Shown here in pieces: positions 1-48,884 of a stretch of 64,000 nucleotides of DNA. The position numbers and the translations under genes are program-made. The number at the start of each line of letters is the position of its first letter. The first letter of the stretch is position 1. The DNA is from a phage, in sequence record PZ496581.1. One strand, 5' to 3'. Below the pieces are notes generated by a model. That model searched no databases. It worked only from the letters and a program-made list of their open reading frames with translations, and was not told the DNA's origin.

Positions 1-231
1 CCAGTTACTAATATATCCACGGTCTAATAGATAAATCTTAGTAGGGTCTAAATAATTCAACATCGTTTCGAAACAGCCAACTTCATTTCGAGACTTAACA
101 TCGAAACGTCCATCAACTGTTCGTTTAGGGAAATCAATCTTTACATATCTTTCACTAATTTCCATTATGTCATTAATGAAAGTTGTTTTACCAGCATTAT
201 CCGGGCCATCTACTAAAATAATTTTAGCCAT
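1..231 (-). CDS. P-loop kinase-like protein, N-terminal 77 aa only (gene runs past window start)
   Basis: ATG at 229-231 (minus); translation MAKIILVDGPDNAGKTT has a Walker A motif; start overlaps stop of upstream gene. Confidence 0.55.
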   Translation of the reverse strand, partial: MAKIILVDGPDNAGKTTFINDIMEISERYVKIDFPKRTVDGRFDVKSRNEVGCFETMLNYLDPTKIYLLDRGYISNW

Positions 232-232
232 T

Positions 233-1132
233 TTATTCCTCGATTACGACATCTTCGTATTTAGGTATATTATACGGTGAAGAAATTAAAGCATTAAAGT
301 AGATGAACTCACCAAGACCTGGATGGAATACTTCTTCAGGATTTTCGAAATATTGAATCTTCGGACGTCCTTTAAGAATTTGATAGTACTCAGTTTTAGT
401 TGGTTTAAAAATTCGAATCAACGCTTCTTCAGGATACTTATTTCTGTCGAAGCTATTATTTGGATCGGTTATATAAAGCGGTTGACCTAATTGAATTGCA
501 CATTCAACCACTTGTTCAAAACGATAGCACGGGTCACTAATTCGAAATGGATGAAAAATACCATCTAGATGAATAGGAGCCAAATCACCTACAAGACGCT
601 GCATGATGGAAGGACGTATAACTTTCTGGGTTATGATAATCTTATTACCATCGGCACCAGCGTTAACCAGCACTTCTTTTTGACGTTCATTCAACACAGT
701 AGTTTGAAGTGAACGATTAACCGACAACATATCGGTTTTTAAGAATTCGTCAATATAAAAACGTGGTTTATTAGGGTCTGCAGTGATATTGAAATTGAAT
801 TCCACATCAAAAGCGCCGTCATATCCGGTGATATCTGTGATTAGAAAATCACAATCATAATAAGCAATTAATGAATCAACCACAAATTCATTTTCAGACC
901 AGAAATATTTACGAGTGTTATACGCGTTATCTTTATACCATAATGGAACAAACTTAAATTCTGGAAAAAGACGTTCGCATTCTTTAATATCAGATGCATT
1001 ACGTGGATATGTAATCACATCACCCGGATTAGCACGGTGCAAATGAAGTTGGAAGTTGCCATCCTTAAGGATAGCATACTGTCCAGTTTCATAAGACCGC
1101 ATACTCAAAATAGGTACGCGGAAAATAGCCAT
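233..1132 (-). CDS. hypothetical enzyme, 299 aa; candidate sugar transferase of the modification cassette
   Basis: ORF with ATG at 1132 overlapping stop of the gene 42-like ORF; no motif recognised. Confidence 0.55.
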   Translation of the reverse strand: MAIFRVPILSMRSYETGQYAILKDGNFQLHLHRANPGDVITYPRNASDIKECERLFPEFKFVPLWYKDNAYNTRKYFWSENEFVVDSLIAYYDCDFLITDITGYDGAFDVEFNFNITADPNKPRFYIDEFLKTDMLSVNRSLQTTVLNERQKEVLVNAGADGNKIIITQKVIRPSIMQRLVGDLAPIHLDGIFHPFRISDPCYRFEQVVECAIQLGQPLYITDPNNSFDRNKYPEEALIRIFKPTKTEYYQILKGRPKIQYFENPEEVFHPGLGEFIYFNALISSPYNIPKYEDVVIEE

Positions 1133-1848
1133 TAGTCAAGGAATCCTTTAACATAATCAAAATCACGTTCAAACACATGGGCACTTACCATGGTATGAGT
1201 ATAATCACCAACTTCTACACCACATTCGTTAGCGATATAATGAAGTAATTTTCCTTGGAGATAAAAATCCAACTGCATAACAACAGCACAGTTCTGAGAA
1301 CGCATATGACAGTGGGTATAAAGCTTACCATCACGAATATAATAAGTCACTGAGTCAGTACATGGATATTCAAGCGTTTCGTCTGAATCAAGCAAAGCCT
1401 GATCAGAACTTTCTAGAATTTGGAACACAACTCTTCGAGAGTTAGGCTTCTCTTTAAGTTCTTTTAGAAGAGCTGGTAATTGGGCCGCAATGCGAGGACC
1501 ATAGAAAGTGTTGAAGTTCGCCGGCAAAACATCTGATTTTGGTTTAGAAATAAATTTAGCGACATTAGGATATGCCTTAAACGCTTCTTCTGCGTTGGTA
1601 CCACCAGAAATCATAAACTTCCAGAAGTCTTCGGCATATTCATAAGAGATGCGGTTAATACGTGGGTCGGTCATTTTGAATGATGATGGAGTGTCAACAA
1701 CTACTGTCATAGACCCAATTTCATTACAACGTCCAATACGAGAATCAGTTACGAATTCCGGGTTTTCTAAAATTTCACGATTGACTGCTTTAAATGCGGT
1801 TTGAAAATCTGCGGCTTTGATATATTTCATTGTGTTATGTTTTCCCAT
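1132..1848 (-). CDS. 42: dCMP hydroxymethylase-like (thymidylate synthase fold), 238 aa
   Basis: ATG at 1848 with GAGG SD; PCTDSVTYYIRD...MRSQNCAVV resembles the T4 gp42/TS active-site region (recalled). Confidence 0.75.
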   Translation of the reverse strand: MGKHNTMKYIKAADFQTAFKAVNREILENPEFVTDSRIGRCNEIGSMTVVVDTPSSFKMTDPRINRISYEYAEDFWKFMISGGTNAEEAFKAYPNVAKFISKPKSDVLPANFNTFYGPRIAAQLPALLKELKEKPNSRRVVFQILESSDQALLDSDETLEYPCTDSVTYYIRDGKLYTHCHMRSQNCAVVMQLDFYLQGKLLHYIANECGVEVGDYTHTMVSAHVFERDFDYVKGFLD

Positions 1849-1890
1849 GTTTACCTCAATACAATTTATTATATACTCAATTCGTAAAGC

Positions 1891-2130
1891 TTATTTGAAT
1901 TTCTTGACAATGTTGATATAACGTAAAGCTTCAGCATCGATACTTCCAAGAACACTATGAAGAAATGCATCAGCGTAGTATTCCAATTGAACAGGTTCTT
2001 TAATCACTTTAGCCGCTTTAGTTTCAAACAGGCCCATCAGGGCCTGTTTAAGAATTTGTTCATTAGTGTTCAGTTTCATAGTCAAAATCTCTTCATTAAG
2101 TTGGTGGTTAAAAGTTTTTCTAGAAATCAT
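1891..2130 (-). CDS. hypothetical protein, 79 aa
   Basis: ORF track; start overlaps stop of upstream gene. Confidence 0.45.
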   Translation of the reverse strand: MISRKTFNHQLNEEILTMKLNTNEQILKQALMGLFETKAAKVIKEPVQLEYYADAFLHSVLGSIDAEALRYINIVKKFK

Positions 2131-3287
2131 TCCGGGTACCTCAAAGCGTCATCAGAGTTAGTTATATCAATAATAGATATAGAGTTTTCTGCTAACCCGT
2201 TTTTAGATAATTGACGTTTATAATATCTTTCACAATATGTACACGTCGTCCCGCAGATTTCATTAGCACAATCGAAATCTGGATGTCTGAACCACCTTTT
2301 TTCTAAAAAGCCATCTAACAAAGAGGTTTCAATATTTACTGTATGTGAAAACTCAGTTTCGTTTTCAAGAGTGAAAATAGTCTCTAAAGGCTTCCACAGT
2401 TCTAACAAATTACCTTCAAACTTTTCAGAAGCGTATGCTTCAAGAACTTTCAAAATGTAGTCTGTGCTACCTGTACGTCCTGAAACTTTGAATTGAGTGA
2501 TACCAATATCATTATAAAGTTTCAAATCTTGAGGACGAACAAAACGAGTTCTCAACCAGTTAAATGGGTCTGTATCACGAGCTTTAATACAGTGCTGCAT
2601 AGGATATCCGTTTAAGGATTTAGCATCATCAGCTGTAACATCAGTACTATGGAAAATATAGCAAGAGTCACGATAGCTACAATGTGTTGTATACCCTTTA
2701 CCAGCATTAGAACAGAACTCATTTACAAGAACTTCAAATATTATATTGTTCTTATTGCAAAACTCTGCTGCACGCTTCAGGAAAGAAACTGAACGGTTCT
2801 TATGAATTCCACAGCAGACCTTTTTGATATTATATTGGTCATGCAAGTATTTGATTTGAGTTACAGCATCGACATGTAGAATTGTTGAAACTTCAATCTC
2901 AATGTCTTTATTGACTTCACGAACAATTTCCATAACAACAGGGTTAGCGATAGTAATACGCCATACGCCTATTGACCAAAGATACTGAACATAATCCTGA
3001 ATAGCTTTCTTCTTCCACTCAACTAGTTCTCTTTTTGAACCAGGATTTATCGTGTTGAGTGTATAGTTAAAGCAAATACCTAATTCGTTACAACGTTTAA
3101 CGTAATCTTCTAACATCTTTTTGTCAACGTCAGGAAGCCTAAAATCAGGTCTGGCTGCTACAAAAGCCATTTCTCTTGTAGAGCCGTATACTTCATTTAT
3201 CAAGCTATTAGGATAAGTTTTATTGAGCTCTACGATTTTATCAAGAAGAGCTAAATCAAAATTCGTTCCGATTTTAAAAGTATTCAT
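2127..3287 (-). CDS. Cys-rich enzyme of unknown function, 386 aa (C-terminal CX4CX3CX2C cluster)
   Basis: ATG at 3287; long ORF inside the sugar cassette; metal-binding-like Cys cluster CANEICGTTCTYC. Confidence 0.6.
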   Translation of the reverse strand: MNTFKIGTNFDLALLDKIVELNKTYPNSLINEVYGSTREMAFVAARPDFRLPDVDKKMLEDYVKRCNELGICFNYTLNTINPGSKRELVEWKKKAIQDYVQYLWSIGVWRITIANPVVMEIVREVNKDIEIEVSTILHVDAVTQIKYLHDQYNIKKVCCGIHKNRSVSFLKRAAEFCNKNNIIFEVLVNEFCSNAGKGYTTHCSYRDSCYIFHSTDVTADDAKSLNGYPMQHCIKARDTDPFNWLRTRFVRPQDLKLYNDIGITQFKVSGRTGSTDYILKVLEAYASEKFEGNLLELWKPLETIFTLENETEFSHTVNIETSLLDGFLEKRWFRHPDFDCANEICGTTCTYCERYYKRQLSKNGLAENSISIIDITNSDDALRYPE

Positions 3288-3347
3288 TTTTTTTGCATCT
3301 CGCGTTAATTGATGTGATGGTTTTTTTTGCAGGTCTTACTTAAATTA

Positions 3348-3734
3348 TTATAGATTCGGTTTATATGATTTAAATGTTTCGAATTCGCCTTTATTCATAA
3401 GAGCTTTGAATTCGTCAGGACGCATAGCTTTGTCGTCGATAATCCAATCATATACTGGTTTATGTGTTAGCAAATTATGGTACTTCAAACCAATGTTTTC
3501 CAAGTTCTGAATCAGACTTGGGAGAATGTCAATTGCTATACGACCAGGACCTACTGACTTCATACCACGAGCAGTGTAAAGCGTTATGGTATGCCCTGCA
3601 TCATACAGGGCATTAATGGCAGACACCATTTCGACGTCTGGTTTGAAGTTCACGTAATCACGATTGTTATTCCATTCCGTGATGCAATCATCGACATCAA
3701 AACAAAGATTAAGCATGTTTTCTACACGGTGCAT
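3348..3734 (-). CDS. HAD-superfamily phosphatase, about 128 aa
   Basis: FDVDDC (motif I), TLYTARG (II), HKP (III), WIIDDK (IV); ATG at 3734 overlaps upstream stop (TAATG). Confidence 0.7.
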   Translation of the reverse strand: MHRVENMLNLCFDVDDCITEWNNNRDYVNFKPDVEMVSAINALYDAGHTITLYTARGMKSVGPGRIAIDILPSLIQNLENIGLKYHNLLTHKPVYDWIIDDKAMRPDEFKALMNKGEFETFKSYKPNL

Positions 3735-5419
3735 TAGATTCGTTCCCATTGATGAGTGATATCGCCACCGATTGGACGATAGGAAACACCAGTTTCTTTA
3801 TCAGTTAGTACCCATTTACCAGGATTTTTTGTAATCAGAGTAGCCGTTACAGGTTCTGCTACGTCATAACTAATAGAGCCGTCCTGAAGTACACGGCCCA
3901 TGTTACGTAATTGCTTAGTCAGAAGTTCCATACCTTTATAATATGCGGCTACCGCTTTAAGTGGATTATTCTTGAAATAACCACCTAATGCAATCCAGAT
4001 AATTGCCACTGCCAAATGATGATACTCGTTAAACGAACTCATCTTTCCATATTTGTAAACTAATGGATTGATGTTAATAGTCACATTACAAGTTGTTTCA
4101 TCAATAGTAAACTGTCCCCAGGTCGGATTAGCATTGAATTCATCATAACCTGAAACAGCATAAAGCACTTTAGCTTCATCATACAATTTTGGCCCGTAAA
4201 TCTTGGTTTCGCCAAAATATCCACGAGGGTCGATAAACTTGACTTCGCCGTTATCAGTAATCATAGTATTACTGAAGTTCGGGTCACCATGAATAACAGA
4301 GTACTGTCCCTGAGAACGGTTATGATAACGAATAAGATGTTCTAAAGCTTGTTTCAACATTGGCTTCAGACGTCCAATCTTAGTGTAGTTCACATGTGTG
4401 ATTTTACCAAATGAATCAATCAATGGTTGAATGCTTTCACAACGATCAATAACTTTCGTATAGAATTCTTTAGTGAAATCACGACGAACAGTTTCAGGAC
4501 TTACAAAATAAGTGTCTGTGCTGAATTTCAGTGCATCTAAAATTGCATCAACAATTTGTGGACGAGCAAGACTTGATTTGGATTTAATATATTCAAATGC
4601 TGGCTTACCTTTAATGCGTTCCATTTCAAAGTTATTTTCATTAACAGAAACTAACTGAGGAACTGAATCTGATTTCACTTTAAGATACCACGAAATCTCA
4701 TCTTTCTGAAGAGCTCGTCCCTGTTCGGTTAATGCGAATTTAGTTACAGTTTCTTCACCAATTTCAACTGCATTAAAACTACGATTAAGTTCACGAACTT
4801 CATGAGCTTTTTCAAGTTTAGGCATATCACCTAAATCAATTAGATTCATAAGCTCTGATTTATTGAATGCGCTGGCGTAAAGGAATTCTACGAAATCACG
4901 TCCTTTGCAGTATTCATGAATTTCTTCATCAGTAGAACCCATATAGAATTCCCAGTCTTTGAACTGATAAATTCCTACAACATTACCACCTGTTGAACCT
5001 ACGTTAGTGATATTTTCACCGTCGAAATTATATCGACATTCGTCACCCTTAACATAGATTGCGTTAACATTCCAAGACCATGAACCAAAATCAGGAATAA
5101 TATCACACCAGTTAACAATTACATTATGGCCGTCTAAATCTTTGTGTAATTTAGCAAGAGCATAAGCAGAACCATACGCTTCATCAACTGTACGAATAGT
5201 CACATTGAACCCTTCTTGCTCACAATAAGCTCGAACAGTTTCAGCAAATTTTGAATGAACTACTACAATAATTTCATCTGCGCCAAGGTCAGAATAAATT
5301 GTATACAAATTGCTCAGAATAGTGTCTTGTTTATAATTCACAAGAACTTTTGGAATATGATGCGTTATTGGATACAAACGAGTTGCCAGTCCAGCACCAA
5401 GAATAACAGCTTTTTTCAT
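3734..5419 (-). CDS. bifunctional sugar-1-phosphate nucleotidyltransferase (N-term) / APH-type sugar kinase (C-term), 561 aa
   Basis: N-term ILGAGLATRLYPIT matches the RmlA/GlmU-type GxGTRL motif; C-term IHGDPNFSN...FIDPRG matches the Brenner kinase motif; ATG 5419 with GAGGA SD. Confidence 0.85.
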   Translation of the reverse strand: MKKAVILGAGLATRLYPITHHIPKVLVNYKQDTILSNLYTIYSDLGADEIIVVVHSKFAETVRAYCEQEGFNVTIRTVDEAYGSAYALAKLHKDLDGHNVIVNWCDIIPDFGSWSWNVNAIYVKGDECRYNFDGENITNVGSTGGNVVGIYQFKDWEFYMGSTDEEIHEYCKGRDFVEFLYASAFNKSELMNLIDLGDMPKLEKAHEVRELNRSFNAVEIGEETVTKFALTEQGRALQKDEISWYLKVKSDSVPQLVSVNENNFEMERIKGKPAFEYIKSKSSLARPQIVDAILDALKFSTDTYFVSPETVRRDFTKEFYTKVIDRCESIQPLIDSFGKITHVNYTKIGRLKPMLKQALEHLIRYHNRSQGQYSVIHGDPNFSNTMITDNGEVKFIDPRGYFGETKIYGPKLYDEAKVLYAVSGYDEFNANPTWGQFTIDETTCNVTININPLVYKYGKMSSFNEYHHLAVAIIWIALGGYFKNNPLKAVAAYYKGMELLTKQLRNMGRVLQDGSISYDVAEPVTATLITKNPGKWVLTDKETGVSYRPIGGDITHQWERI

Positions 5420-5460
5420 GTTGAAGTCCTCATTGGTAAGTAGGAGTATTGTACACTATT

Positions 5461-5604
5461 CTAGTTAAAGCATTCATACTTTGCTTGTAGTCCAATCATA
5501 ATCCATCCAATTACAAGTGTTGGAATCATTACCGGAGCCGTTAAGCTCCAGTAGATAGTCATGACAAGCATCAATAGTAAAAGTCCTATTGTTATTGCTT
5601 TCAT
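5461..5604 (-). CDS. small hydrophobic membrane protein, 46 aa (below ORF-track cutoff)
   Basis: Own translation MKAITIGLLLLMLVMTIYWSLTAPVMIPTLVIGWIMIGLQAKYECFN; ATGA overlap with SIS gene stop. Confidence 0.4.
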   Translation of the reverse strand: MKAITIGLLLLMLVMTIYWSLTAPVMIPTLVIGWIMIGLQAKYECFN

Positions 5605-6236
5605 TGTTCGCCTCGTAACATGGCACCTAGTGCACCGCCTGGATGGAACTTAAGGAAATCATTAGAGGTAAATCCACGTTCAGACGAAAGGTTGATAGCA
5701 AACGTATCGATAAGTGCTAACAACAATGTAGTGGACATCGTCGGAGCTAAAGAGTTCTCGTCAACTTCTACCGCGATACCGGTGCAGAACGTATAATCAA
5801 AAAGAGCTTCGTATTCTTGTGGAATGTCAGGGTTACAATGTAACAGAATCTGTTTAACCTGAGGACGAATCATACGAAGATGTTTAGCAACACCTATCAT
5901 TTCTTCAGTCTTACCAGAACGACTGATGTGAACTAATACATCATTAGGTGCAATAAATCCTGCGTCACCATGAGAATAATGCCCGGTGTTCAAATACATG
6001 CTAGGAATACCTAGTGAAGCAAAAGTCTCGGAAGCTTTAGTTGCGATATTAGCATTCTTACCAACACCTGTAATAATTACCCGGCTTTCATAATTACTAA
6101 GTCCAGGGCGTCGAAGAGTTTCTAGAATAGCATTATAACGAGCAGGGTTTTGACTAATTACTTTAGCCATAGTGGCAAGAGATGAAGCTTGTTTTACGAT
6201 TGCGTCAATAGCGATAGTAATAGGAGTAGTTTTCAT
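5601..6236 (-). CDS. SIS-domain sugar-phosphate isomerase (KdsD/GutQ-like arabinose-5-phosphate isomerase candidate), 211 aa
   Basis: ITGVGKNANIATKASETFASLGIPS...HGD...ISRSGKTEE matches the SIS phosphosugar-binding pattern. Confidence 0.8.
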   Translation of the reverse strand: MKTTPITIAIDAIVKQASSLATMAKVISQNPARYNAILETLRRPGLSNYESRVIITGVGKNANIATKASETFASLGIPSMYLNTGHYSHGDAGFIAPNDVLVHISRSGKTEEMIGVAKHLRMIRPQVKQILLHCNPDIPQEYEALFDYTFCTGIAVEVDENSLAPTMSTTLLLALIDTFAINLSSERGFTSNDFLKFHPGGALGAMLRGEQ

Positions 6237-6276
6237 ATTTCTCTCATTTAATTAGTTGGCCGTCCTTGGCATTATA

Positions 6277-8988
6277 TCAAAAATCAAACATATCGAACAG
6301 AGATGCTTTCTTCTCGTAATCGAGTTTAGCTGCTGATGTGAATCCTTCAAGTGGTTTAATAAATGTCTTCTCAAGGAGAACAGTGTAGTCCATCCAATGA
6401 AGTACATCGTCTTTAATTAAATCTGTGATTTCAGTACCAGAAGGCCATGCGATACATTTATCACCGAATGGGTTTCCTTCACGTAAAGGCAGAACATATA
6501 CTTTTTCACCTTCTACAACTTGCGGTGCATCGATATTACCTTTGATAGCCCGGTTATACGTCAGAATTCCACGAATATGGAACGGGCATTTGGGACCAGG
6601 GAATCCACCGACGTCATATTTAGCAATGTTATTCGCAGAAGATACCGACGCGATGCTAATATAATTCAACTGACGGAATTCTTTTTCAAACTCTTTAAAA
6701 TATTCTTGTAATGATTCTTCACCTTCCTGAAGCATACGACGAATACATTCCTTAAGAGCTTTCTGTACTGCTTTAGGAGTCGAAGATTTCTGTGTTTCGA
6801 GACCCATGATTTTAAGCTTAGGTTCAGCGTATCTGGTTCCTTCCATATCCCATACATTCAAGGCATAACGTTTCTTACCTGTCCAAAATCCGCCAATACC
6901 TTTAGAACCAAGCGGAGGCCCAGCGATAGCTTCTCGGTCCATGAACATTAAGTGTTGTTTATTGTTCATGTATTCACACATTTCACGGAAACCTCTATCA
7001 ATAGCTGGTTCCATACGTTCACGTGCAAACTTATCTAAGAAGTCTACCCAATGGTTGGTATCACGGAATTTAGATTCACCAACCTTATCGATAATTTTAT
7101 CGGCAGATACGTAAATAGAGTCTGTATCACCATAAAGAACGAAAGCTTCACCTTCTGTACCACAAACTTCATTCAGATATTCATTAACTTTACGTTCAAT
7201 CCACTGTAAAGCCATTTGTCCGAATGTTGTGATTGCAGTAGCATTACGCAAATCATAATAACGGAACCAAACGTTTCCAAGTGCACCATAAAGTGAGTTG
7301 ATGAGCAATTTACGGTTAATTTGTGCAGTCATACCTGCAACTTCAGTACGTTGAGCTCTAAACAACATTTCATTAAGAGATTTAGCAGACAACTTTTTAA
7401 TCTTTTCTTTAATCTCATCGCTGAAGTCGAAACGATAATCAACATCTAATGGTTCGTCAACAGAAAGATTAGGATTATGCAATGCCTCTTTAATTATTTC
7501 ACCATTACGTTGAGCTGCAAGCATGTAACCTTTATGTTCTTTACGTTGATTAAAGACCTTAGTGATTTCAGTTGGAACTACACCATCACGGTCTTTATAA
7601 TACATCATGCCGTTAGGAGAACAACTGTACACATCTGAAGGACGTTCAGCGATTGCGTTAATATAATCATGCAATGGAGCTACTTTAAACGTTCCTGCTA
7701 TTGTTTCCGGGCTAATATTCACTTGGCGAATAATACTTGGATACAGAGATGTAAGGTCGAAACTCATTACATATTTGTATCGATTTGGAATAGGTTCCTT
7801 AACAAAAGCGCCAGGATAAGGTTGAACCGGGTGAGAACGACCTTGTGGAATCACCTTGTTCTGTTCTTTAAGGCTATTAAAAATAATAGCATCCCATGTT
7901 TTAATTGGGCCAAACACAGATTGAATCTGTATCTTAGCATAATAACCCATGTCCAAACTCAAGTTGATGAACTGACGCTTAGCATCAATTTGCAATACAC
8001 GATACACATCGATAATGTTATAAGAAATATATCGTTGGTGATTGCTTTCACGAAGTTTAGAAATAGGGCCGTCATATTTCAGTTTACCAACGTTCAATTC
8101 AAATTCTGAAATGTAATCCAGAGAATACGATGGTTGATTGGTAAAAGAGAATTTTTTGTAAAGGTCAATGTAATCAAGAACAGAGATACCGAACAATGTA
8201 ATGATTTCACGAGAACCATACATGTTTTCGATAACTTTAACACGAGTTTTACGATGTGGTGATAAACGTTTCGCAGTAGATTCGCCAAAAATATTCTTGA
8301 TTCGGTTATACACATATGGAATATCGAATGACTCAACGTTCCATCCAGTCAAAATGACAGGAGTTTTCTGTTGCCAGAAGTTGAGATATTCCATCAACAA
8401 TTCTTTTTCGTTATCGAACGGTATATAAATGATTTTATCGATAATTTCGGATGGAACTTCATCACCACCTTGTTCTTGAAGCTTAGCCGCAATTTCGATA
8501 GACCATTCTTCTACATTACCATACGGAGAATTCAATAGATCAAATACGTAGAACCTGTCGTCAATTGAGTCATAATGGGTGATAGCATCAATCGGATGTT
8601 TTGCTTGTGATGGCTCAGGGAACCCATCCGGAGATGTTACTTCGATGTCGAAGTTAGCCACACGAATTTTTGTATGGTCGTATTTGATTTCATAGTTATA
8701 AGTGTCAGACAAATACGCCAATTTGAAATCGTCCATACCAAGTGCTTCAAGTCCGATATCTTCCATGCGTTTAATCCATTGGGAGGCATCACGCATATTA
8801 GCGAACAACTTACGAGTACACGGCTTACCGTAGATATCGAAATATTTCGTAGCCTGACTTTCTGGACAATGAGCAAACAGTGATGGTTTATATTCTACTT
8901 CACGAGTACGTTCACGGCCATTAGAATCGATGTAACGTTCAAAAATTGAATCACCAATCTGTTCAACCGTTAAGTAAAATTCTTTCAT
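6277..8988 (-). CDS. 43: DNA polymerase gp43 (family B), 903 aa
   Basis: Near-identity to T4/RB69 gp43 as recalled; exo motifs FDIE, NIIDV; YGDTDS polymerase motif. Confidence 0.97.
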   Translation of the reverse strand: MKEFYLTVEQIGDSIFERYIDSNGRERTREVEYKPSLFAHCPESQATKYFDIYGKPCTRKLFANMRDASQWIKRMEDIGLEALGMDDFKLAYLSDTYNYEIKYDHTKIRVANFDIEVTSPDGFPEPSQAKHPIDAITHYDSIDDRFYVFDLLNSPYGNVEEWSIEIAAKLQEQGGDEVPSEIIDKIIYIPFDNEKELLMEYLNFWQQKTPVILTGWNVESFDIPYVYNRIKNIFGESTAKRLSPHRKTRVKVIENMYGSREIITLFGISVLDYIDLYKKFSFTNQPSYSLDYISEFELNVGKLKYDGPISKLRESNHQRYISYNIIDVYRVLQIDAKRQFINLSLDMGYYAKIQIQSVFGPIKTWDAIIFNSLKEQNKVIPQGRSHPVQPYPGAFVKEPIPNRYKYVMSFDLTSLYPSIIRQVNISPETIAGTFKVAPLHDYINAIAERPSDVYSCSPNGMMYYKDRDGVVPTEITKVFNQRKEHKGYMLAAQRNGEIIKEALHNPNLSVDEPLDVDYRFDFSDEIKEKIKKLSAKSLNEMLFRAQRTEVAGMTAQINRKLLINSLYGALGNVWFRYYDLRNATAITTFGQMALQWIERKVNEYLNEVCGTEGEAFVLYGDTDSIYVSADKIIDKVGESKFRDTNHWVDFLDKFARERMEPAIDRGFREMCEYMNNKQHLMFMDREAIAGPPLGSKGIGGFWTGKKRYALNVWDMEGTRYAEPKLKIMGLETQKSSTPKAVQKALKECIRRMLQEGEESLQEYFKEFEKEFRQLNYISIASVSSANNIAKYDVGGFPGPKCPFHIRGILTYNRAIKGNIDAPQVVEGEKVYVLPLREGNPFGDKCIAWPSGTEITDLIKDDVLHWMDYTVLLEKTFIKPLEGFTSAAKLDYEKKASLFDMFDF

Positions 8989-9016
8989 TTAATTTCCTTT
9001 AGACGAGTTATTGTCT
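8989..9016 (-). promoter_or_regulatory. candidate gene 43 translational operator (hairpin AGAC-8 nt loop-GTCT plus SD AAAGGA)
   Basis: Hairpin and SD directly 5' of gene 43 ATG; T4-family gp43 autoregulates through such an operator. Confidence 0.4.
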
Positions 9017-9035
9017 TTTGTTTGTTGATGAACTT

Positions 9036-9063
9036 ATTATACTCCAAATGGGACCGAAGTCCC
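9036..9063 (-). promoter_or_regulatory. -10 TATAAT plus GGGAC-UUCG-GUCCC hairpin between regA and gene 43
   Basis: Minus-strand TATAAT at 9036-9041; tetraloop hairpin 9050-9063. Confidence 0.4.
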
Positions 9064-9069
9064 ATTGCT

Positions 9070-9438
9070 TTAATTACCAATTGTATATTTTGCTTTCAAA
9101 GTCCAGTCATCTTTCTGTTTAAAAGAGATAACACGGAAGTTATTAGTCAGGCCAAACAGATCTTCACGAGCAGAGTCTTCAATAACAATCAAGCCCCAGT
9201 CTTCAAGCAACTGAGCAATCGAATCACGTCGCTGATAGTCTTCACCATCAATATCAACCTGACGTCCGTCCATACGCAGCATTTCTTTAAAGTGGACGAT
9301 GTAATATTTACCTTGCTTTTGGAGGATATGACAGGACTGATAAAGAACTTTATCCTTGTTATTAGCGATGCCCATACGGGTCAGAGTCTCTTTGACTTTC
9401 AGAAAATCTTCGGGGTTCTTCAATTTAATTTCGATCAT
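9070..9438 (-). CDS. regA: translational repressor RegA, 122 aa
   Basis: MIEIKLKNPEDFLKVKETLTRMGIANNKDKVLYQSCHILQK matches T4 RegA as recalled; start trimmed to MIEI. Confidence 0.9.
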   Translation of the reverse strand: MIEIKLKNPEDFLKVKETLTRMGIANNKDKVLYQSCHILQKQGKYYIVHFKEMLRMDGRQVDIDGEDYQRRDSIAQLLEDWGLIVIEDSAREDLFGLTNNFRVISFKQKDDWTLKAKYTIGN

Positions 9439-20127: not shown

Positions 20128-20598
20128 TTAATCATGTTTCCACACCCCATCGGTATTTGTCCAAAGTCGCTGATTATCTGATCCTCGCCACAGCTTTTTA
20201 GTCGGAAGATTTTTCTCATACTTCCCATCAATAATAACATCAACATATTTAAGCATTTCTAGCTGTTTAATATCTTCAAACTTATATCCTGTCCACAACC
20301 AAATGCTTTTATTTGGATAAAGATTTTTTACTGTTTGAGCAATGCAATGAATAACATCTCGATTATCAGGATAGAGAGGGTCACCTCCGGTTATAGTCAA
20401 TCCTTCTATATAATCATTATTCAAACATTCAATTAATTGTTCTAGTGTCTCTCCGGTGAATGGAATACCATTTCTAGCATTCCATGTTGATTTATTATAA
20501 CACCCTTCGCATTTATGCAAACAACCTGTAACGAAAAGAACGACCCTGCAACCAGGGCCATTCACAAAATCGCAAGGATAAAATCTATCATAATTCAT
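20128..20598 (-). CDS. nrdG: anaerobic ribonucleotide reductase activating protein NrdG (radical SAM)
   Basis: Cys cluster CRVVLFVTGCLHKCEGC; 156 aa; directly downstream of nrdD. Confidence 0.88.
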   Translation of the reverse strand: MNYDRFYPCDFVNGPGCRVVLFVTGCLHKCEGCYNKSTWNARNGIPFTGETLEQLIECLNNDYIEGLTITGGDPLYPDNRDVIHCIAQTVKNLYPNKSIWLWTGYKFEDIKQLEMLKYVDVIIDGKYEKNLPTKKLWRGSDNQRLWTNTDGVWKHD

Positions 20599-24292: not shown

Positions 24293-24698
24293 TATTTTTC
24301 CTTTCATCGATTAAATATGCAACACCAAATACAATACATGTAATAAAACCTGTGATACAGATAGAAACCAACAACACTGTACCAAAGAACCAAATCAGGT
24401 TATCTTTAGTAGTTTGTTTGATATCCATCTCACGAATTTCTATAGCTATCGTATCACCTTTATTCAGAAGCGTATAAAACGACGGTGATACACGCCTGTC
24501 AAAAACTCGTCCTTGCTCATCTTTATAGACTGCAATAAATTCTAATTTAGAATATTTTCCTGTAGATTGACCTGAAATTAATTCCACTACCTCCACAGGA
24601 ATTACTTTAGTTTCCATGTAAGTATTCTGGCTGTTCCAAATGAATGGAATGATGGCAAAAACTAAAGCTGCAATAAAACAACGAAGGCTATATCTCAT
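24285..24698 (-). CDS. membrane protein, 137 aa
   Basis: Hydrophobic N- and C-terminal segments. Confidence 0.5.
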   Translation of the reverse strand: MRYSLRCFIAALVFAIIPFIWNSQNTYMETKVIPVEVVELISGQSTGKYSKLEFIAVYKDEQGRVFDRRVSPSFYTLLNKGDTIAIEIREMDIKQTTKDNLIWFFGTVLLVSICITGFITCIVFGVAYLIDERKNNV

Positions 24699-25003
24699 TA
24701 TAATGTTCTCTCAAATTTGTGGAAGCATTTACGGCATTTCAATTTCAAGTTATCAGTGGTCCAGTTAACCAGTTGGACTTGGATAGTTCCACATTCTGGG
24801 CATGGATGTTTTGCTGCCGATTTGGCAGCATTTTCACGTCGTTCAACCATTTTCATTATTTCGTTCCATGCTGGAGGAACGAACTCTTCTTCACTATGAA
24901 TTTTATCTCGCTGAACAAATTCAATCTTTGAACTATCATCAATAAACTTAACTAAGCCATGATTAGTGTTCATATCAATATCCTCTAAAAGACGTAGTTT
25001 CAT
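24698..25003 (-). CDS. zinc-ribbon protein, 101 aa
   Basis: CPECG...CRKC pair of CxxC motifs. Confidence 0.5.
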   Translation of the reverse strand: MKLRLLEDIDMNTNHGLVKFIDDSSKIEFVQRDKIHSEEEFVPPAWNEIMKMVERRENAAKSAAKHPCPECGTIQVQLVNWTTDNLKLKCRKCFHKFERTL

Positions 25004-25953
25004 TATAAAACCTCAATGGCATTTCGTAAACCATCCGCTTTTGCATTAAGAGCTTTTAATGATTTAGTTTGTTCTGCAATCTGGGCTTCGACTTCTTTCA
25101 GACGAGATTTGAGATATTCGCGTTCTTCTCTTAAGTTATCAACTTTTTCTACTTTAGGTTCTTTAATAGGCTTAGGTTTATACGTATTAGGGTTCTTCAG
25201 CTTAATTTGAATACGAGAACTGAATAACATTGAACCGTTATCTTCGGTTTCACTATGCATTTCTACCACGTCCATGATTCTTAACATCATGCGAAGTTTA
25301 TAAGACAGCGAACGAATGGTTTTATTGTGCTTCTTAATTTCTTCAGCTTTCATGGTGCCGAGATTACGTGAGTAGTAATAAGGAACCTGAATATCAATTG
25401 ATAATGATGCGGTACCATTACCAGTTGGTTTGAATACTGCAGTAACCCAATCTTTAACATGAACTTTATTTGTACGATCATCGCCACCTGTGAATAATTT
25501 ACAAGAATGTTTAAAAAGCATATTCACTTGGTTATTGAATTCACAAGCAAATTTATCAGCAAATTTAGTTTCAGGAATGGTAGTTAACCAATCAGCCAAA
25601 TGAGTCTTTTTAACATCATTAACAATAGTGAATTCAACCAAATCGGTTTTAGATGTCACAGATTTAATAAAGCTCGGCTTCATAAAGTTTTTAATGTTAT
25701 CGCGAGCTACAGTAGAAGATAATAAACGAGAACGTTTGAACCATTGAAGCAACGTCCCTAACGAATGAGAATACGCATTTTGAGTATCTTTACAGATATG
25801 ATTTTCTTGGCCTATGTATGTACCAAAATCGCGAAGAATACCACTTACTACATCTCGGTGTGGAACATCAAATCCTAATGAACCAGAAGCACGTTGGGCA
25901 TGAACGTTAGCGATAAGACCTGCAAAGTATTCAATGTAATGTGAACGTGTCAT
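25003..25953 (-). CDS. hypothetical protein with C-terminal coiled coil, 316 aa
   Basis: ORF track; early promoter module immediately upstream. Confidence 0.6.
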   Translation of the reverse strand: MTRSHYIEYFAGLIANVHAQRASGSLGFDVPHRDVVSGILRDFGTYIGQENHICKDTQNAYSHSLGTLLQWFKRSRLLSSTVARDNIKNFMKPSFIKSVTSKTDLVEFTIVNDVKKTHLADWLTTIPETKFADKFACEFNNQVNMLFKHSCKLFTGGDDRTNKVHVKDWVTAVFKPTGNGTASLSIDIQVPYYYSRNLGTMKAEEIKKHNKTIRSLSYKLRMMLRIMDVVEMHSETEDNGSMLFSSRIQIKLKNPNTYKPKPIKEPKVEKVDNLREEREYLKSRLKEVEAQIAEQTKSLKALNAKADGLRNAIEVL

Positions 25954-25982
25954 AATATTTTCCTCTCGTTAAGATAAATTCA

Positions 25983-26011
25983 TTATACTCCAACCATCCT
26001 TGGTTGTAAAC
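25983..26011 (-). promoter_or_regulatory. early-type promoter (-35 GTTTAC, -10 TATAAT)
   Basis: Minus strand reads GTTTACaaccaaggatggttggagTATAAT. Confidence 0.55.
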
Positions 26012-26015
26012 TATT

Positions 26016-26975
26016 TTATGATTTTAATGCATTCATTGCGTTAAAAAGTTTAGAATACTGCAACTGGAGATTCGTTACAACACTTTGAGCATCACGAAGC
26101 TTAGCTTGTGCTTTGTCAAGTTCAACGGATAGTTGGTCTACAGTGGCCTTGATTTGATTGTAATGGTAATCTTCGGCCGGAAGAAGGTCATTAGAAACAT
26201 TTAGTTTTACTGCAGACAGTTTGCACACATTTGGCAAACCTTTAAACATTGATTTACCCGAAGTAGAATATGCACCTAGAACTTCAGCATTGCCAGTTGG
26301 GGTTGCAGTAATTGACGCTTCGAACGTTGCATTTTCCTTTTTAAGATTTTGATAGTATTCAGAGTCTTTGTGCCACCATGACGCAGGAACCTTTTTACCA
26401 ATAGATACACGAGCCTGGATAGCGATATGGCCCTTATTCTTGATAGGGTCGATAATATTAAGCTCACGAGAATAAATTGCTTTAATCTGGTGGATATTAT
26501 CACCTAAAACTTCCAACGCTTGGTGGAATACACGAGCAACGTTATCATTCTTAGGTTTATACGTAAGAGTGAACTCGTTCTCACTGATAACCATGATTTC
26601 CAACTTATCGTAAGTATATTTCAAATGTTTCATGTTAATTGCTTGAGGACGAATACGAGAAGCAATGGCCATCAGATTGTTAAGGTTATTCCGGAACTGC
26701 TTAGCGAAATATTGTCCTTCACCGCCAATACAAAAATTACGAAGTTTCTGTTTGGCTAATAAACGGCTGAACTCACCATTTTTAATGAACTCTTTAACGG
26801 GTGTGTTAGTAACGCATTCAAATTGAGTAAACTTACGAGAATTAATCCCATAATATGAACAGATTTCCTCAATCTCTTCAGGAGTCTTTACAGGCATACG
26901 GATAGGATTAGGACCTGGGGTATATGCGTTCGAGGTAAATTCTTTGATAAGTTCTCTACGTGTAATAGAAGCCAT
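26016..26975 (-). CDS. hypothetical protein with C-terminal coiled coil, 319 aa
   Basis: ORF track; near-identical promoter module upstream. Confidence 0.6.
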   Translation of the reverse strand: MASITRRELIKEFTSNAYTPGPNPIRMPVKTPEEIEEICSYYGINSRKFTQFECVTNTPVKEFIKNGEFSRLLAKQKLRNFCIGGEGQYFAKQFRNNLNNLMAIASRIRPQAINMKHLKYTYDKLEIMVISENEFTLTYKPKNDNVARVFHQALEVLGDNIHQIKAIYSRELNIIDPIKNKGHIAIQARVSIGKKVPASWWHKDSEYYQNLKKENATFEASITATPTGNAEVLGAYSTSGKSMFKGLPNVCKLSAVKLNVSNDLLPAEDYHYNQIKATVDQLSVELDKAQAKLRDAQSVVTNLQLQYSKLFNAMNALKS

Positions 26976-27002
26976 TTTGTGTTCCTCATGTTGAAAAATT
27001 TA

Positions 27003-27031: not shown

Positions 27032-27101
27032 CATTCCTTAAGAAGTTTTACTACTTGAATAAGATTAGCTCGTTCTGTTTTATTTTTACCATTTAAGCCT
27101 G

Positions 27102-35023: not shown

Positions 35024-35226
35024 TATTCTTCTACATGTTGTTTACGGCCTTTCTTATCAATAAAGGTATATTCAACGAATGTTCCGATGTAGTCTTTATC
35101 TACATCATGTGGACTATTAATTGGACATTTGGTACGACAAATGCGTTCCCATTGACGAATAATTACTGCCTTATTCTTTGGGTCATATGGATGTGGATAA
35201 TGTATATTCATAATAACGGTTCCCAA
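34999..35226 (-). CDS. hypothetical protein, 75 aa
   Basis: ORF track. Confidence 0.45.
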   Translation of the reverse strand: MGTVIMNIHYPHPYDPKNKAVIIRQWERICRTKCPINSPHDVDKDYIGTFVEYTFIDKKGRKQHVEEYCLKVTWL

Positions 35227-35705
35227 TCAACAATCACAATTTCTAGTTTAGTGGAATACGTATCTAAAATCTCTTCGATGACATCCCAGTTTCCACCACC
35301 AATACCTGCACCAATTCTTGGCATATAAATTACAGGCTTTGTTATCTTATTCTTTCCGAATTCATTTAATTCTATTATACAATTCATTAAAGCAGAGTAC
35401 TCAAAATTAGGTCCAGGCTCAAACTGTGTATAAAGATTAAAGCAATAAGCTTTATGGGTCTTAAAATATTTTTCATAAACCGAATAAGTCCCGAGTTTAG
35501 ACTCGTCTCCGAATTCTGTTTGAAGTTTATCGGCTTCCAGAATTTTTGGATAAGCCTTTGCTAATTGTCCTGCCACACCAGCGCCCATTGTATGAAAACA
35601 ATTACATCCATGAGCAATATTATTACCTTTAGAAAACAGGGCGACAATATCGCCCTTGATATAGTTTTTAATCACTTGCTGCAAGTCCTCTAGTATAAGA
35701 GTCAA
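35208..35705 (-). CDS. macro-domain protein (ADP-ribose binding/hydrolase candidate), 165 aa
   Basis: AHGCNCFHTMGAGVAGQ and PRIGAGIGGGNW resemble the two macro-domain glycine-rich loops. Confidence 0.6.
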   Translation of the reverse strand: MTLILEDLQQVIKNYIKGDIVALFSKGNNIAHGCNCFHTMGAGVAGQLAKAYPKILEADKLQTEFGDESKLGTYSVYEKYFKTHKAYCFNLYTQFEPGPNFEYSALMNCIIELNEFGKNKITKPVIYMPRIGAGIGGGNWDVIEEILDTYSTKLEIVIVDWEPLL

Positions 35706-47094: not shown

Positions 47095-47382
47095 TTACAG
47101 AAGAGTTTTTGCAATAATTTTAAGCTGAGCTACAGAAATATGCTTAGCTTTAAACAGTGCAGTCTCTTCAGCCGGAGAGATAACAATAGTAGCGCCATCT
47201 TTCTTGGCAGACCATCCATCCCCTAAGTAAACAGTACCTTTTACTTCTTCGCCGTCAACCAGACTAATCATTGGTTTACCCTCACGTCCTTTATTTGCTT
47301 TAATAACTTCGGAAGTAAGGGTTGCTTCGGTCAGAGTAGAAACGTTAGCAACAGGTGATATAAATTCTTGATAGGTTTTCAT
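47095..47382 (-). CDS. internal protein I-like (CTS MKTYQEFISP), 95 aa
   Basis: ATG start; CTS-like N-terminus; T4 ipI position next to 57B. Confidence 0.6.
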   Translation of the reverse strand: MKTYQEFISPVANVSTLTEATLTSEVIKANKGREGKPMISLVDGEEVKGTVYLGDGWSAKKDGATIVISPAEETALFKAKHISVAQLKIIAKTLL

Positions 47383-48149: not shown

Positions 48150-48884
48150 TTACCTTAAGATTGTTTCAATTTTAGAATAAAGCTCTTCTAAAGAGCCGTC
48201 GTTTGTAATAACTAAATCGCCTTCTTCAATAGGCAACCCAGCTTCTGTAATATGTTTATCAGTGGATTCCGTACCAGAGCGAACCACATGAATAACTGTA
48301 GCACCCATCGCTCTAGCGGTTTCCATTTCATGGACTTGGCGTGTATCGGTTACAACATAGTAATCGAAATCACTTCCAATATAATCCATATAATTTAATG
48401 CAAAAAGTTTAACCCAATACATACGGTCAAATAAATTAACGACAACATCCGTACCGAGGGCTTGCATAAGACGGCGGATTGACCATGTGTCGTTGATATT
48501 ATTTATAGCTTCACGCAGGGCTTCATACGGTTTAATATCTAGATATGAATACCCACCTTCTAATGATGATAATACTTTAACATTATTAATTGGTAAATAT
48601 TGACTTTGTAAATAAATTAGCGCTTCTTCCATTAATTCAATAACATCCAACTTATTGATATTTAATGGTGTTTCACGGTCGTATCCAACACCTTCAAAGT
48701 ATTCATATTTCAACTCTGTGAATACATCAGGATCTTCAGCATGTTTACGACCCCAGGCTATTGCTAGAGCGTCTTTAATCGGATATGCCAATTGGTATTT
48801 TACGGATTTAAAGTTTGAATTGATGTAATCAGCAGTAGTGTCTTTACCACTACGTTTGATGCCACTTAAAAAGATTAGCTCCAT
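48150..48884 (-). CDS. 1: deoxynucleoside monophosphate kinase gp1
   Basis: MELIFLSGIKRSGKDTTAD...MQALGTD...VIHVVR matches T4 gp1 as recalled. Confidence 0.92.
   Translation of the reverse strand: MELIFLSGIKRSGKDTTADYINSNFKSVKYQLAYPIKDALAIAWGRKHAEDPDVFTELKYEYFEGVGYDRETPLNINKLDVIELMEEALIYLQSQYLPINNVKVLSSLEGGYSYLDIKPYEALREAINNINDTWSIRRLMQALGTDVVVNLFDRMYWVKLFALNYMDYIGSDFDYYVVTDTRQVHEMETARAMGATVIHVVRSGTESTDKHITEAGLPIEEGDLVITNDGSLEELYSKIETILR

Follow-up and report, generated by a model that had tools for sequence, protein, structure and literature searches.

A probable arabinosyl-5-hydroxycytosine cluster in an RB69-like phage, and a U32-family protein proposed as a second, oxygen-independent hydroxylase

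Gene content and identity of the cluster

We analyzed 64,000 nucleotides (nt) of phage DNA from sequence record PZ496581.1, referring to this whole stretch as the window, and focused on positions 1–6236. Nine open reading frames (ORFs) lie in this region, all on the minus strand, co-directional and densely packed, just downstream of the gene for an RB69-type DNA polymerase (gene 43). With high probability, the region is the arabinosyl-5-hydroxycytosine (ara-5hoC) DNA hypermodification cluster of an RB69-like Mosigvirus. That cluster is already annotated and published, and is not a new discovery. The new value here lies in the gene for a U32-family protein and in its link to prephenate supply. 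The features considered are as follows (aa, amino acids).

6277..8988: gene 43, RB69-type DNA polymerase
5601..6236, minus strand: 211-aa SIS isomerase (RB69 gp55 homolog)
5461..5604, minus strand: 47-aa hydrophobic (membrane) peptide
3734..5419, minus strand: 561-aa nucleotidyltransferase/kinase fusion (RB69 gp52:53, HY126 AfhE homolog)
3348..3749, minus strand: HAD-like phosphatase of 133 aa, or of 128 aa from 3734 (RB69 gp51, HY126 AfhF homolog)
2127..3287, minus strand: 386-aa Cys-rich U32-family protein (RB69 gp50 homolog)
1891..2130, minus strand: 79-aa protein, overlapping the U32 stop codon by 4 nt
1132..1848, minus strand: 238-aa thymidylate synthase (TS) homolog, predicted 5-hydroxy-deoxycytidine monophosphate (5-hydroxy-dCMP) synthase (RB69 gp48 homolog)
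233..1132, minus strand: 299-aa GT-B protein, candidate DNA arabinosyltransferase 1 (RB69 gp46:47 homolog)
1..231, minus strand: thymidylate-kinase-like P-loop nucleotide kinase, first 77 codons, running past the window start (RB69 gp45 homolog)
48153..48884, minus strand: deoxynucleoside monophosphate (dNMP) kinase, 42 kb away from the 1–6236 cluster (T4 gp1/RB69 gp159 homolog)

All nine ORFs sit where a first-pass annotation of this DNA had placed nine minus-strand genes, immediately downstream of gene 43. Its description of genes tightly coupled through overlapping stop and start codons held in part. The packing is dense and four junctions overlap (by 4, 16 or 1, 4 and 1 nt), but the other four leave gaps, one of 1 nt and three of 41–60 nt. 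The membrane peptide, given there as 46 aa, is 47 aa long. Homologs of each of the nine ORFs are present across many phages, and ratios of nonsynonymous to synonymous substitution rates (dN/dS), computed pairwise against RB69, Bas46 and phiE142, were 0–0.13, with 0.25–0.29 for the 79-aa ORF. The nine ORFs are therefore genes under purifying selection, not chance ORFs.

Over 7.6 kb, the window aligned to RB69 positions 24365–31997 (RB69 genes 45–56) with 97.3% nucleotide identity by blastn. On this evidence the ORFs of 1–6236 evidently correspond to RB69 genes 45 to 55, and the phage is an RB69-like Mosigvirus. Shigella phage JK42 was 99.0% identical over 6300 nt, and 153 phage records fell at 95–99%. 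Bas46, 98.2% identical to the cluster region, is annotated there for UDP-arabinose (UDP, uridine diphosphate) biosynthesis. RB69 genes 45–55 and the 'Afh' pathway of HY126 comprise the same genes in the same order and in the same uvsX–gene 43 position, and differ from the window only in the splits of 46/47 and 52/53 in the RB69 reference. In the window, 46/47 and 52/53 are single intact ORFs; RB69 p046+p047 and p052+p053 map contiguously onto them, and each of the two blastn alignments (233..1132 and 3734..5419) holds one 1-nt gap. The splits are thus consistent with frameshift errors in the RB69 reference. They are viewed as sequencing errors in PMC13326640 as well.

The genes for the isomerase, nucleotidyltransferase/kinase, HAD phosphatase, TS-type hydroxylase, GT-B transferase and thymidylate-kinase-like protein are contiguous between gene 43 and uvsX, the latter lying just past the window start as judged from Bas46. 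This is the slot where T4 carries beta-gt and 42. A T4-type alpha- or beta-glucosyltransferase, which the first-pass annotation had not seen either, was found nowhere in the 64 kb (tblastn best E = 0.53 and 1.9). An RB69 gp3-type second arabinosyltransferase and the dCTPase gp56 are likewise not encoded in the window. In RB69 these map to 2.5–3.6 kb and 15.5–16.0 kb, upstream of the window's start, and their absence reflects placement of the window, not the genome.

Two T4 middle-promoter-like motifs lie on the minus strand of the cluster, at ∼5474 and ∼295. Each has a MotA box, AATGCTTTA, followed after 12 nt by TACAAT or TATAAT. The first is upstream of the nucleotidyltransferase/kinase gene; the second falls within the 3′-terminal part of the transferase gene and precedes the kinase-like gene. 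By our own estimate, four MotA-box matches in 6.4 kb compare with ∼0.45 expected from base composition. A scan of 1..9200 for sigma-70 promoters and terminators gave counts equal to those of shuffled sequence.

Hydroxylation of the base

The sources for the known system are Lee et al. (NAR 2026, PMC13326640), He et al. (Nat Chem Biol 2026) and Mahler et al. (Cell Host Microbe 2025). In RB69 and Acinetobacter phage DLP3, all cytosine is replaced by mono- or poly-arabinosylated 5-hydroxycytosine (5hoC) (Lee et al. NAR 2026, PMC13326640). RB69-type DNA contains mono- and di-arabosyl 5hoC (2025–2026 work), and 5-arabinosyl-arabinosyl-hydroxy-cytosine was reported for Bas46. Virion DNA with ara-5hoC has been shown in RB69, Bas46 and phage NP. 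Given the near-identity of the published cluster, the proposal of the first-pass annotation that these genes form a DNA hypermodification cassette with its own activated-arabinose supply, and are the genetic basis of arabinose modification in RB69, proved correct.

The 238-aa TS homolog scored above threshold for Pfam Thymidylat_synt (PF00303; E = 2e-15, 56.9 bits versus a 24.3-bit cut-off). It is 99.2% identical to RB69 gp48 and matches the solved HY126 enzyme (PDB 9IQC/9IR2) at 233 of 238 residues (98%; 9IQC E = 8e-161). A further PDB entry of the HY126 enzyme, 9IQU, also matched, as did TS and MilA structures. Identity to T4 gp42 is 25% (E = 1e-10). At ThyA position 169, the TS homolog has Asn (RSQN), where ThyA (RSCD) and T4 gp42 (RSND) have Asp. 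D169N has been proposed as diagnostic of 5-hydroxy-dCMP synthase (PMC13326640). The protein also carries C146, L143E (EYPC) and N177D (QLD). RB69 gp48 converts dCMP to 5-hydroxy-dCMP, taking the oxygen from O2, as revealed by 18O2 labelling, and has flavin (flavin mononucleotide) bound (PMC13326640). By sequence, then, the TS homolog is evidently a 5-hydroxy-dCMP synthase, a flavin- and O2-dependent dCMP C5-hydroxylase, and not a T4-type hydroxymethylase.

This departs from the first-pass annotation, which called the protein dCMP-hydroxymethylase-like and the modified base hydroxymethylcytosine (hmC). In such a scheme, a T4-type dCMP hydroxymethylase would make hmC DNA and arabinose would be placed on the hydroxymethyl group (ara-hmC). 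Arabosyl-hmC was in fact claimed for RB69 by Thomas et al. 2018 (PMC6024577), many GenBank records label the TS homolog a dCMP hydroxymethylase, and this TS-superfamily protein shares N177D and an acidic residue 143 with T4 gp42. Yet the published chemistry is 5hoC with arabinose at C5 (PMC13326640, PMC13390438). NMR (nuclear magnetic resonance) and MS (mass spectrometry) place the sugar in an ether link directly at C5 of 5hoC, a result that, along with the 18O2 labelling and bound flavin of gp48, already refutes ara-hmC for RB69 (PMC13326640). The 2018 assignment has been explicitly called erroneous (PMC13390438). In the window, 98% identity to the HY126 enzyme, Asn169 and the low identity to gp42 point the same way, and we consider ara-hmC very unlikely.

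Resemblance to the T4 hmC system is nonetheless extensive. Both use a TS-fold enzyme acting on dCMP, gp1 phosphorylation, polymerase incorporation and glycosyltransferase decoration, with genes in the same genomic slot. They differ in that the window hydroxyl would be placed directly on C5, by flavin/O2 chemistry instead of the folate one-carbon transfer of T4; in that the sugar would be arabinofuranose from a phage-made UDP-sugar instead of glucose from host UDP-glucose; and in transferases unrelated in sequence. The TS homolog itself, with its 25% identity to gp42 and D169N, is another difference.

Beyond the TS homolog, the proposed nucleotide route runs through the distant dNMP kinase gene. 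Its product is 62% identical to T4 gp1 (tblastn E = 1e-94; Pfam DNMK E = 1e-96). RB69 gp159, a gp1-type kinase, phosphorylates 5-hydroxy-dCMP (PMC13326640). Thus the TS-fold enzyme would hydroxylate dCMP at C5 with O2 and flavin, as demonstrated for enzymes 98–99% identical to it, and the gp1-type kinase would convert 5-hydroxy-dCMP to 5-hydroxy-dCDP, as demonstrated for gp159. Host nucleoside diphosphate (NDP) kinase and the gp43 polymerase would then place 5-hydroxy-dC in DNA instead of dC.

Arabinose activation and transfer

Profile matches in Pfam, NCBIfam and PDB back the first-pass domain calls for the SIS, nucleotidyltransferase/kinase, HAD and TS-superfamily proteins. The SIS protein matched Pfam SIS (E = 8e-10) and, under their full-length cut-offs, NCBIfam KpsF/GutQ TIGR00393 (E = 9e-32) and KdsD (E = 4e-30). 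Only profile positions 47–202 of 328 are covered, at 105 bits versus a 505-bit equivalog cut-off. Its PDB matches are 3ETN (E = 1e-24), 5UQI and 2XHZ (KdsD; E = 2e-18). Like 3ETN and 5UQI, it is a stand-alone SIS domain without a CBS pair. The 211-aa protein is thus probably a KdsD/GutQ-type arabinose-5-phosphate isomerase. The 561-aa fusion matched Pfam NTP_transferase at residues 3–99 (E = 8e-10) and, weakly, kinase families at residues 308–409, where an HGDPNFSN (HGDxxxxN) loop is visible; its Klebsiella ortholog matches the APH family above the cut-off. The HAD protein, 98% identical to RB69 p051, has a visible DVDD motif and matched the capsule biosynthesis phosphatase family TIGR01689 of NCBIfam (E = 2e-13, under its cut-off).

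The summary in PMC13326640 assigns the activation steps to two HY126 proteins. The kinase domain of AfhE converts arabinose-5-phosphate to the 1,5-bisphosphate, AfhF (HAD) removes the 5-phosphate from arabinofuranose-1,5-bisphosphate, and the nucleotidyltransferase domain of AfhE makes UDP-arabinofuranose; UDP-arabinose synthesis is ascribed there to AfhE and AfhF alone. By homology, the window SIS isomerase would convert ribulose-5-phosphate to arabinose-5-phosphate. The kinase domain of the fusion would yield arabinofuranose-1,5-bisphosphate, the HAD phosphatase would take this to arabinofuranose-1-phosphate, and the nucleotidyltransferase domain would make UDP-arabinofuranose. For the kinase, phosphatase and nucleotidyltransferase steps, this assignment relies on ∼98–99% identity to RB69, PMC13326640 treating RB69 and HY126 as equivalent. 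The first-pass route from ribulose-5-phosphate through arabinose-5-phosphate to an NDP-sugar therefore stands in outline, but its free-sugar intermediate does not, as the route summarized in PMC13326640 goes via arabinose-1,5-bisphosphate.

The same domain matches might suggest a sugar pathway for host takeover, supplying capsule, lipopolysaccharide or 3-deoxy-D-manno-octulosonate (KDO) precursors instead of modifying DNA. Arabinose-5-phosphate is a KDO precursor, the isomerase is KdsD/GutQ-like, the phosphatase matches a capsule-biosynthesis family, and PHROG files two genes of the cluster under auxiliary metabolic genes. But near-identical phages have arabinose in their virion DNA, and the chemistry of RB69, Bas46 and phage NP contradicts such a role. 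Moreover, the genes are interleaved with a nucleotide hydroxylase gene, and the place that they fill between uvsX and gene 43 is that of beta-gt and 42 in T4. We give this explanation virtually no credence.

The first-pass annotation had left the 299-aa protein as an enzyme of no assigned function. It gave no sequence match in Pfam, NCBIfam or PDB. However, a Foldseek check of its AlphaFold2 (AF2) model (predicted local distance difference test score, pLDDT, 95) returned GT-B folds, with their two Rossmann-like domains, at probability 1.00 and TMq 0.53–0.63: MshA 3C4Q as best match (TMq 0.60–0.63), 7QSG, 6KIH and 9IR0, the last being a glycosyltransferase of phage HY126 with UDP. UDP-GlcNAc 2-epimerases share the GT-B fold and scored similarly to glycosyltransferases. 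From fold and context, we infer that the protein is a candidate arabinosyltransferase, the one missing from the first-pass scheme, which would add the first arabinose to 5hoC in DNA. RB69 gp46:47 is listed with the same transferase result in Table 1 of PMC13326640. The second arabinose would be added by the RB69 gp3-type transferase encoded outside the window.

None of our results contradicts the ara-5hoC assignment as a whole, but two points weigh against it. Activities were measured on RB69, HY126 and DLP3 proteins, and for the window phage they would be carried over by sequence. In addition, the parts of PMC13326640 available to us mark transferase activity as confirmed for some DLP3 transferases only, not for the gp46:47-type protein. 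As already told for the published system, the cluster explains the resistance of RB69-type phages to most restriction enzymes and some CRISPR systems, and hypermodification in phages can begin from 5hoC instead of hmC.

The DLP3/Lazarusvirus cluster is closely similar, its gene order matching that of the window for the isomerase, the nucleotidyltransferase/kinase, the phosphatase, the TS-type hydroxylase, the 299-aa-type transferase and the thymidylate-kinase-like protein. It differs in having two extra adjacent transferases and no U32, chorismate mutase or 79-aa gene.

Two further ORFs of the window cluster flank these functions. In the kinase-like ORF, the N-terminus MAKIILVDGPDNAGKTT is visible, with the Walker A motif GPDNAGKT. 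The full-length Bas46 ortholog is a putative thymidylate kinase (phrog_761 thymidylate kinase, E = 3e-45), and the RB69 gp45-type protein is listed as 'nucleotide kinase' in Table 1 of PMC13326640. The 47-aa peptide matched phrog_3610 (E = 7e-27) and is conserved between the isomerase and nucleotidyltransferase/kinase genes. Most Straboviridae clusters have a homolog at the equivalent place, and the LC53 ortholog is annotated with transmembrane segments.

Family, fold and cysteines of the U32 protein

The 386-aa product of 2127..3287 belongs to Pfam Peptidase_U32 (PF01136; E = 7e-11, 42.2 bits versus a 22.4-bit cut-off), and its gene is under strong purifying selection (dN/dS 0–0.08). PHROG and GenBank label it a peptidase. 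RB69 gp50 appears as 'sugar or heterocycle reductase' in Table 1 of PMC13326640 and is otherwise undiscussed; that paper mentions the RlhA and tRNA hydroxylation pathways only as using no homolog of the TS-type enzyme. The protein had no PDB sequence match. Its AF2 model (pLDDT 92) is a TIM barrel, whose best PDB fold match is 5D88, the one U32 protein with a solved structure (TM 0.72 on the target).

Characterized U32 proteins, namely RlhA, TrhP and UbiU/UbiV, are hydroxylation factors. TrhP serves in the formation of 5-hydroxyuridine in tRNA. RlhA is needed for 5-hydroxycytidine 2501 of 23S rRNA, a modification that requires Fe–S biogenesis and prephenate (chorismate mutase activity), and four of its cysteines are essential: C169, C176, C580 and C611 (PMC5727448). 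UbiU/UbiV are 4Fe–4S proteins of the O2-independent ubiquinone pathway (PMC6747719). Prephenate is the oxygen donor in the anaerobic ubiquinone pathway and has been proposed as the donor for all U32 hydroxylations (PMC10990095).

The window protein has ten invariant cysteines. C203 and C209 share columns with C169/C176 of both RlhA and UbiU, with a spacing of CX5C versus CX6C. MAFFT placed C345, C349 and C352 on RlhA C580, C611 and C614, with both motifs ending in CxxCE, although this alignment bridges long gaps and is soft. All five cysteines are invariant in 56/56 homologs. Invariant C158, C177, C192 and C233 might substitute for canonical cysteines that the phage subfamily lacks. DUF3656, the marker of the RlhA subfamily, was not found, Pfam giving PF01136 only, and because of this the protein appears not to be a member of the RlhA subfamily itself. 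The closest E. coli paralog differs by method: hhalign favored RlhA (81% versus 6–10%), whereas HMMER favored TrhP (14.7 versus 9.0 bits). Taken together, the fold and residue evidence for a U32 hydroxylase is suggestive only.

Genomic neighbors and distribution of U32

In six other genera, the neighbor of U32 is a chorismate mutase gene: Serratia phage LC53, Enterobacter Entb_45, Klebsiella CP-p-KP-21072, Proteus phiP4-3, Yersinia TG1 and Shewanella Thanatos-2. These type II mutases scored 33–45 bits versus the 27-bit Pfam cut-off. Their profile matched PDB 1YBZ (E = 1.5e-16), and the Arg/Arg/Lys/Glu/Ser/Gln active-site set is kept. With loci from IMG/VR counted, a Pfam-significant chorismate mutase adjoins U32 in 17 of 19 distinct Straboviridae clusters, the exceptions being Mosigvirus (the window) and one Marfavirus-like genome. 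The cluster of Thanatos-2 is rearranged, and there U32 and the mutase have moved jointly away from the TS homolog.

We also collected 33 loci of uncultured phages, many on contigs of 120–470 kb, by an IMG/VR pattern search and metagenome look-ups. Their U32 proteins are 45–55% identical to the window protein. Chorismate mutase, DAHP synthase or a fusion of the two lies beside U32 in 12 of the 33. Homologs of the 299-aa transferase were seen in 23, frequently with translational coupling to U32, and many loci also carry an isomerase, a nucleotidyltransferase/kinase, TET-associated-type glycosyltransferases, dCMP deaminase, dUTPase/DCD or uracil-DNA glycosylase (UDG). A TS-family gene occurs within 10 kb in only one locus (L035). 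In the Straboviridae clusters, the TS-type hydroxylase is never more than ∼2 kb from U32.

The TS-family gene of L035 was considered as a hydroxylase and ruled out, since it encodes an ordinary ThyA with D169, N177 and L143.

Several U32 loci merit individual mention. DAHP synthase or the DAHP synthase–chorismate mutase fusion adjoins U32 at L058:11079-12197, L046:7302-8357, L045:8411-9433, L033:9384-10130 and L015:8145-8891. Shikimate-pathway entry and exit enzymes are thus carried as genes of uncultured phages. At L018:6028-9000, L041:9010-11979 and L036:8982-12160, a 299-aa transferase homolog is followed by U32 and then by a TET-associated-type or GT47-like glycosyltransferase gene, with no TS-type hydroxylase within 10 kb; in L018, genes for dUTPase/DCD and UDP-galactopyranose mutase are present as well. 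These three are candidates for new glycosylated 5-hydroxypyrimidine DNA. In L003:1-9086 and L016:1-8826, on contigs of up to 466 kb that encode a PolIII-alpha-type polymerase, the U32 gene comes after dCMP deaminase and is near UDG and thymidylate-kinase-like genes, which hints that the U32 substrate in these phages could be a uracil rather than a cytosine nucleotide. Finally, L004:8001-15428 (and also L005) has two U32 paralogs and dockerin-bearing neighbors and is probably clostridial. Further neighbors in L004 are a radical SAM/SPASM protein, 5′(3′)-deoxyribonucleotidase, deoxynucleoside kinase, nicotinamide mononucleotide transporter and nucleoside 2-deoxyribosyltransferase. This locus may be a cellular or prophage deoxynucleoside-modification island.

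By tblastn, U32 was detected in 222 phage records and the TS homolog in 346, including 57 Acinetobacter phages. The U32 records listed name Escherichia, Klebsiella, Shigella, Serratia, Proteus, Yersinia, Enterobacter, Providencia, Edwardsiella, Pectobacterium and Shewanella, and among these names all hosts are facultative anaerobes. Acinetobacter is a strict aerobe. U32 was not found by tblastn among the 57 Acinetobacter phages carrying the TS homolog; in Acinetobacter phage Apostate, the phosphatase gene abuts the hydroxylase gene, leaving nothing in the U32/mutase slot. Tri-arabinosyl-5hoC is made by DLP3-type Acinetobacter phages (PMC13326640). Because Acinetobacter phages make polyarabinosyl-5hoC without it, U32 is dispensable for arabinose synthesis or transfer.

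The 79-aa ORF lies between U32 and the TS homolog gene, where most related genera have a chorismate mutase. It gave no Pfam match up to E = 10 and no NCBIfam match up to E = 1. It matches phrog_8601, a family of unknown function. The family is mostly confined to Mosigvirus, is often truncated (many database entries have only ∼50 aa) and evolves faster than its neighbors, as the dN/dS values above indicate. We considered whether this ORF is a diverged chorismate mutase and ruled it out: there was no domain match, hhalign gave a probability of 0.2%, and 79-aa homologs coexist with a separate mutase in Yersinia TG1, Pectobacterium PM2 and others, between U32 and the hydroxylase gene. Phage chorismate mutases gave no tblastn match to the cluster. 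Elsewhere in the window, the LC53 mutase matched 35239..35406 (tblastn E = 0.004), antisense to a macro-domain gene, and we treated this match as chance.

A proposed anaerobic hydroxylation route

We propose that the U32 protein hydroxylates pyrimidines at C5 in a prephenate-dependent reaction that needs no O2, which would provide an anaerobic route to 5hoC. On the present sequence evidence, we hold this reading to be evenly poised between right and wrong. With the same divided confidence, the protein may be the founding member of a phage hydroxylase family that makes 5-hydroxypyrimidine deoxynucleotides or hydroxylates DNA directly. As do RlhA, TrhP and UbiU/V, it would use prephenate as oxygen donor along with Fe–S clusters, and it would make the same 5-hydroxypyrimidine as the flavin enzyme when the host grows without oxygen. 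Many relatives would bring their own prephenate supply, in the form of chorismate mutase or the DAHP synthase–chorismate mutase fusion. Because the accompanying mutase is missing, the window phage would rely on host prephenate, drawn from PheA/TyrA. On this reading, a single modified base would be served in RB69-like phages by two hydroxylases that are not homologous, the flavin/O2 enzyme in aerobic hosts and the U32 Fe–S enzyme in anaerobic ones. In a large group of uncultured phages, some of them jumbo phages, DNA glycosylation would be supplied by U32 as the sole hydroxylase.

The likeness to RlhA, TrhP and UbiU/UbiV extends from the U32 domain and fold to the CX5–6C pair, with a C-terminal Cys cluster that may correspond to that of RlhA, and to the genetic linkage with prephenate supply in related phages. 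The product expected of the window protein, a C5-hydroxylated pyrimidine, would also match the base present in the phage DNA. On the other hand, the window protein is remote from them in sequence, without DUF3656 or the canonical third and fourth cysteines, and its putative substrate is a deoxynucleotide or DNA, not RNA or a quinone. Pairs of O2-using and O2-independent enzymes for one product are known in NrdAB/NrdDG, UbiIHF/UbiUV and TrhO/TrhP, and we infer a pairing of this kind for 5hoC.

The window has NrdG, the anaerobic ribonucleotide reductase activase, at 20131..20598 on the minus strand, with 79% identity to T4. Its presence shows that the phage is equipped for anaerobic hosts and already keeps an anaerobic enzyme for a nucleotide-metabolism step.

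Several observations count against a U32 hydroxylase. The phage subfamily has a deletion where the U32 motif, canonically CX6CX15CX3/4C, has its third and fourth Cys, and only two of the four UbiU ligand positions align with the window protein. It is remote from all four E. coli paralogs (HMMER ≤15 bits). No chorismate mutase was found beside U32 in the window itself by Pfam, NCBIfam, hhalign or tblastn. The uncultured phages could also encode a TS-type hydroxylase at a distance of over 10 kb. Dhakavirus-type E. coli phages are without U32 although their host is a facultative anaerobe, and because of this U32 is best described as an accessory module. The contrast between aerobic and anaerobic hosts also rests on very few independent lineages. 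Our assessment of the proposal was set by these partial Cys data, few lineages and possible distant TS-type genes.

One competing view assigns the protein to the sugar branch: it would be a 'sugar or heterocycle reductase', or some other enzyme of UDP-arabinose synthesis, and have no part in hydroxylation. This accords with the label in Table 1 of PMC13326640 and with the Bas46 annotation, with the location of the gene between the phosphatase and base-modifying genes, with the frequent company of isomerase and nucleotidyltransferase/kinase genes in uncultured phages, and with the TIM-barrel model, a fold common among sugar enzymes. But the Acinetobacter phages, with the same sugar genes and no U32, still make polyarabinosyl-5hoC, and the summary in PMC13326640 credits AfhE and AfhF alone with UDP-arabinose synthesis. 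Furthermore, we found no reductase cofactor motif in the protein, known family members are hydroxylation factors, and nothing in pentose activation would account for linkage to chorismate mutase or DAHP synthase. We think a sugar-branch role unlikely.

Another view holds that the protein is an RlhA/TrhP-like RNA hydroxylase, acting on host or phage rRNA or tRNA, or a true peptidase, and that its position in the cluster is incidental. T4-like phages encode tRNAs and remodel translation, which we counted in favor of an RNA role. So did we the fact that the characterized pyrimidine-hydroxylating U32 proteins act on RNA (PMC5727448, PMC10990095); PHROG and GenBank carry the peptidase label. Set against this are the absence of the DUF3656 domain of RlhA and the translational coupling of U32 to DNA glycosyltransferase homologs across very divergent phages. 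Its neighbors are genes for dCMP deaminase, dUTPase/DCD, thymidylate-kinase-like proteins, UDG and DNA polymerase, and U32 occurs only in phages that have, or plausibly need, a 5-hydroxypyrimidine. An RNA hydroxylase or peptidase thus seems quite improbable.

We found no proposal of an anaerobic U32 hydroxylase for phage DNA in the searchable literature on phage U32 proteins in connection with hydroxycytosine, RlhA or chorismate mutase; that coverage did not extend to He et al. 2026 and Mahler et al. 2025, which may address the gene. If the proposal is true, it would explain full cytosine replacement by phages of gut bacteria where there is no O2 for the flavin enzyme. It would also give the U32 family its first deoxynucleotide or DNA substrate. 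A phage, an anaerobic host and pheA tyrA mutants would together make a small system, open to genetics, in which prephenate-dependent hydroxylation could at last be demonstrated directly. Glycosylated 5-hydroxypyrimidines would moreover become likely in a large set of uncultured phages.

Other features of the window

T4 IPI* blocks GmrSD, which attacks glucosyl-hmC DNA. A homolog of T4 internal protein I, with 87% identity, is encoded at 47098..47382 on the minus strand and is kept although the window phage is without glucosyl-hmC. A 165-aa macro-domain protein is encoded at 35208..35705, also on the minus strand (Pfam Macro, 28 bits versus a 22-bit cut-off). Judging from this domain, it could be an ADP-ribose-removing counter-defense enzyme.

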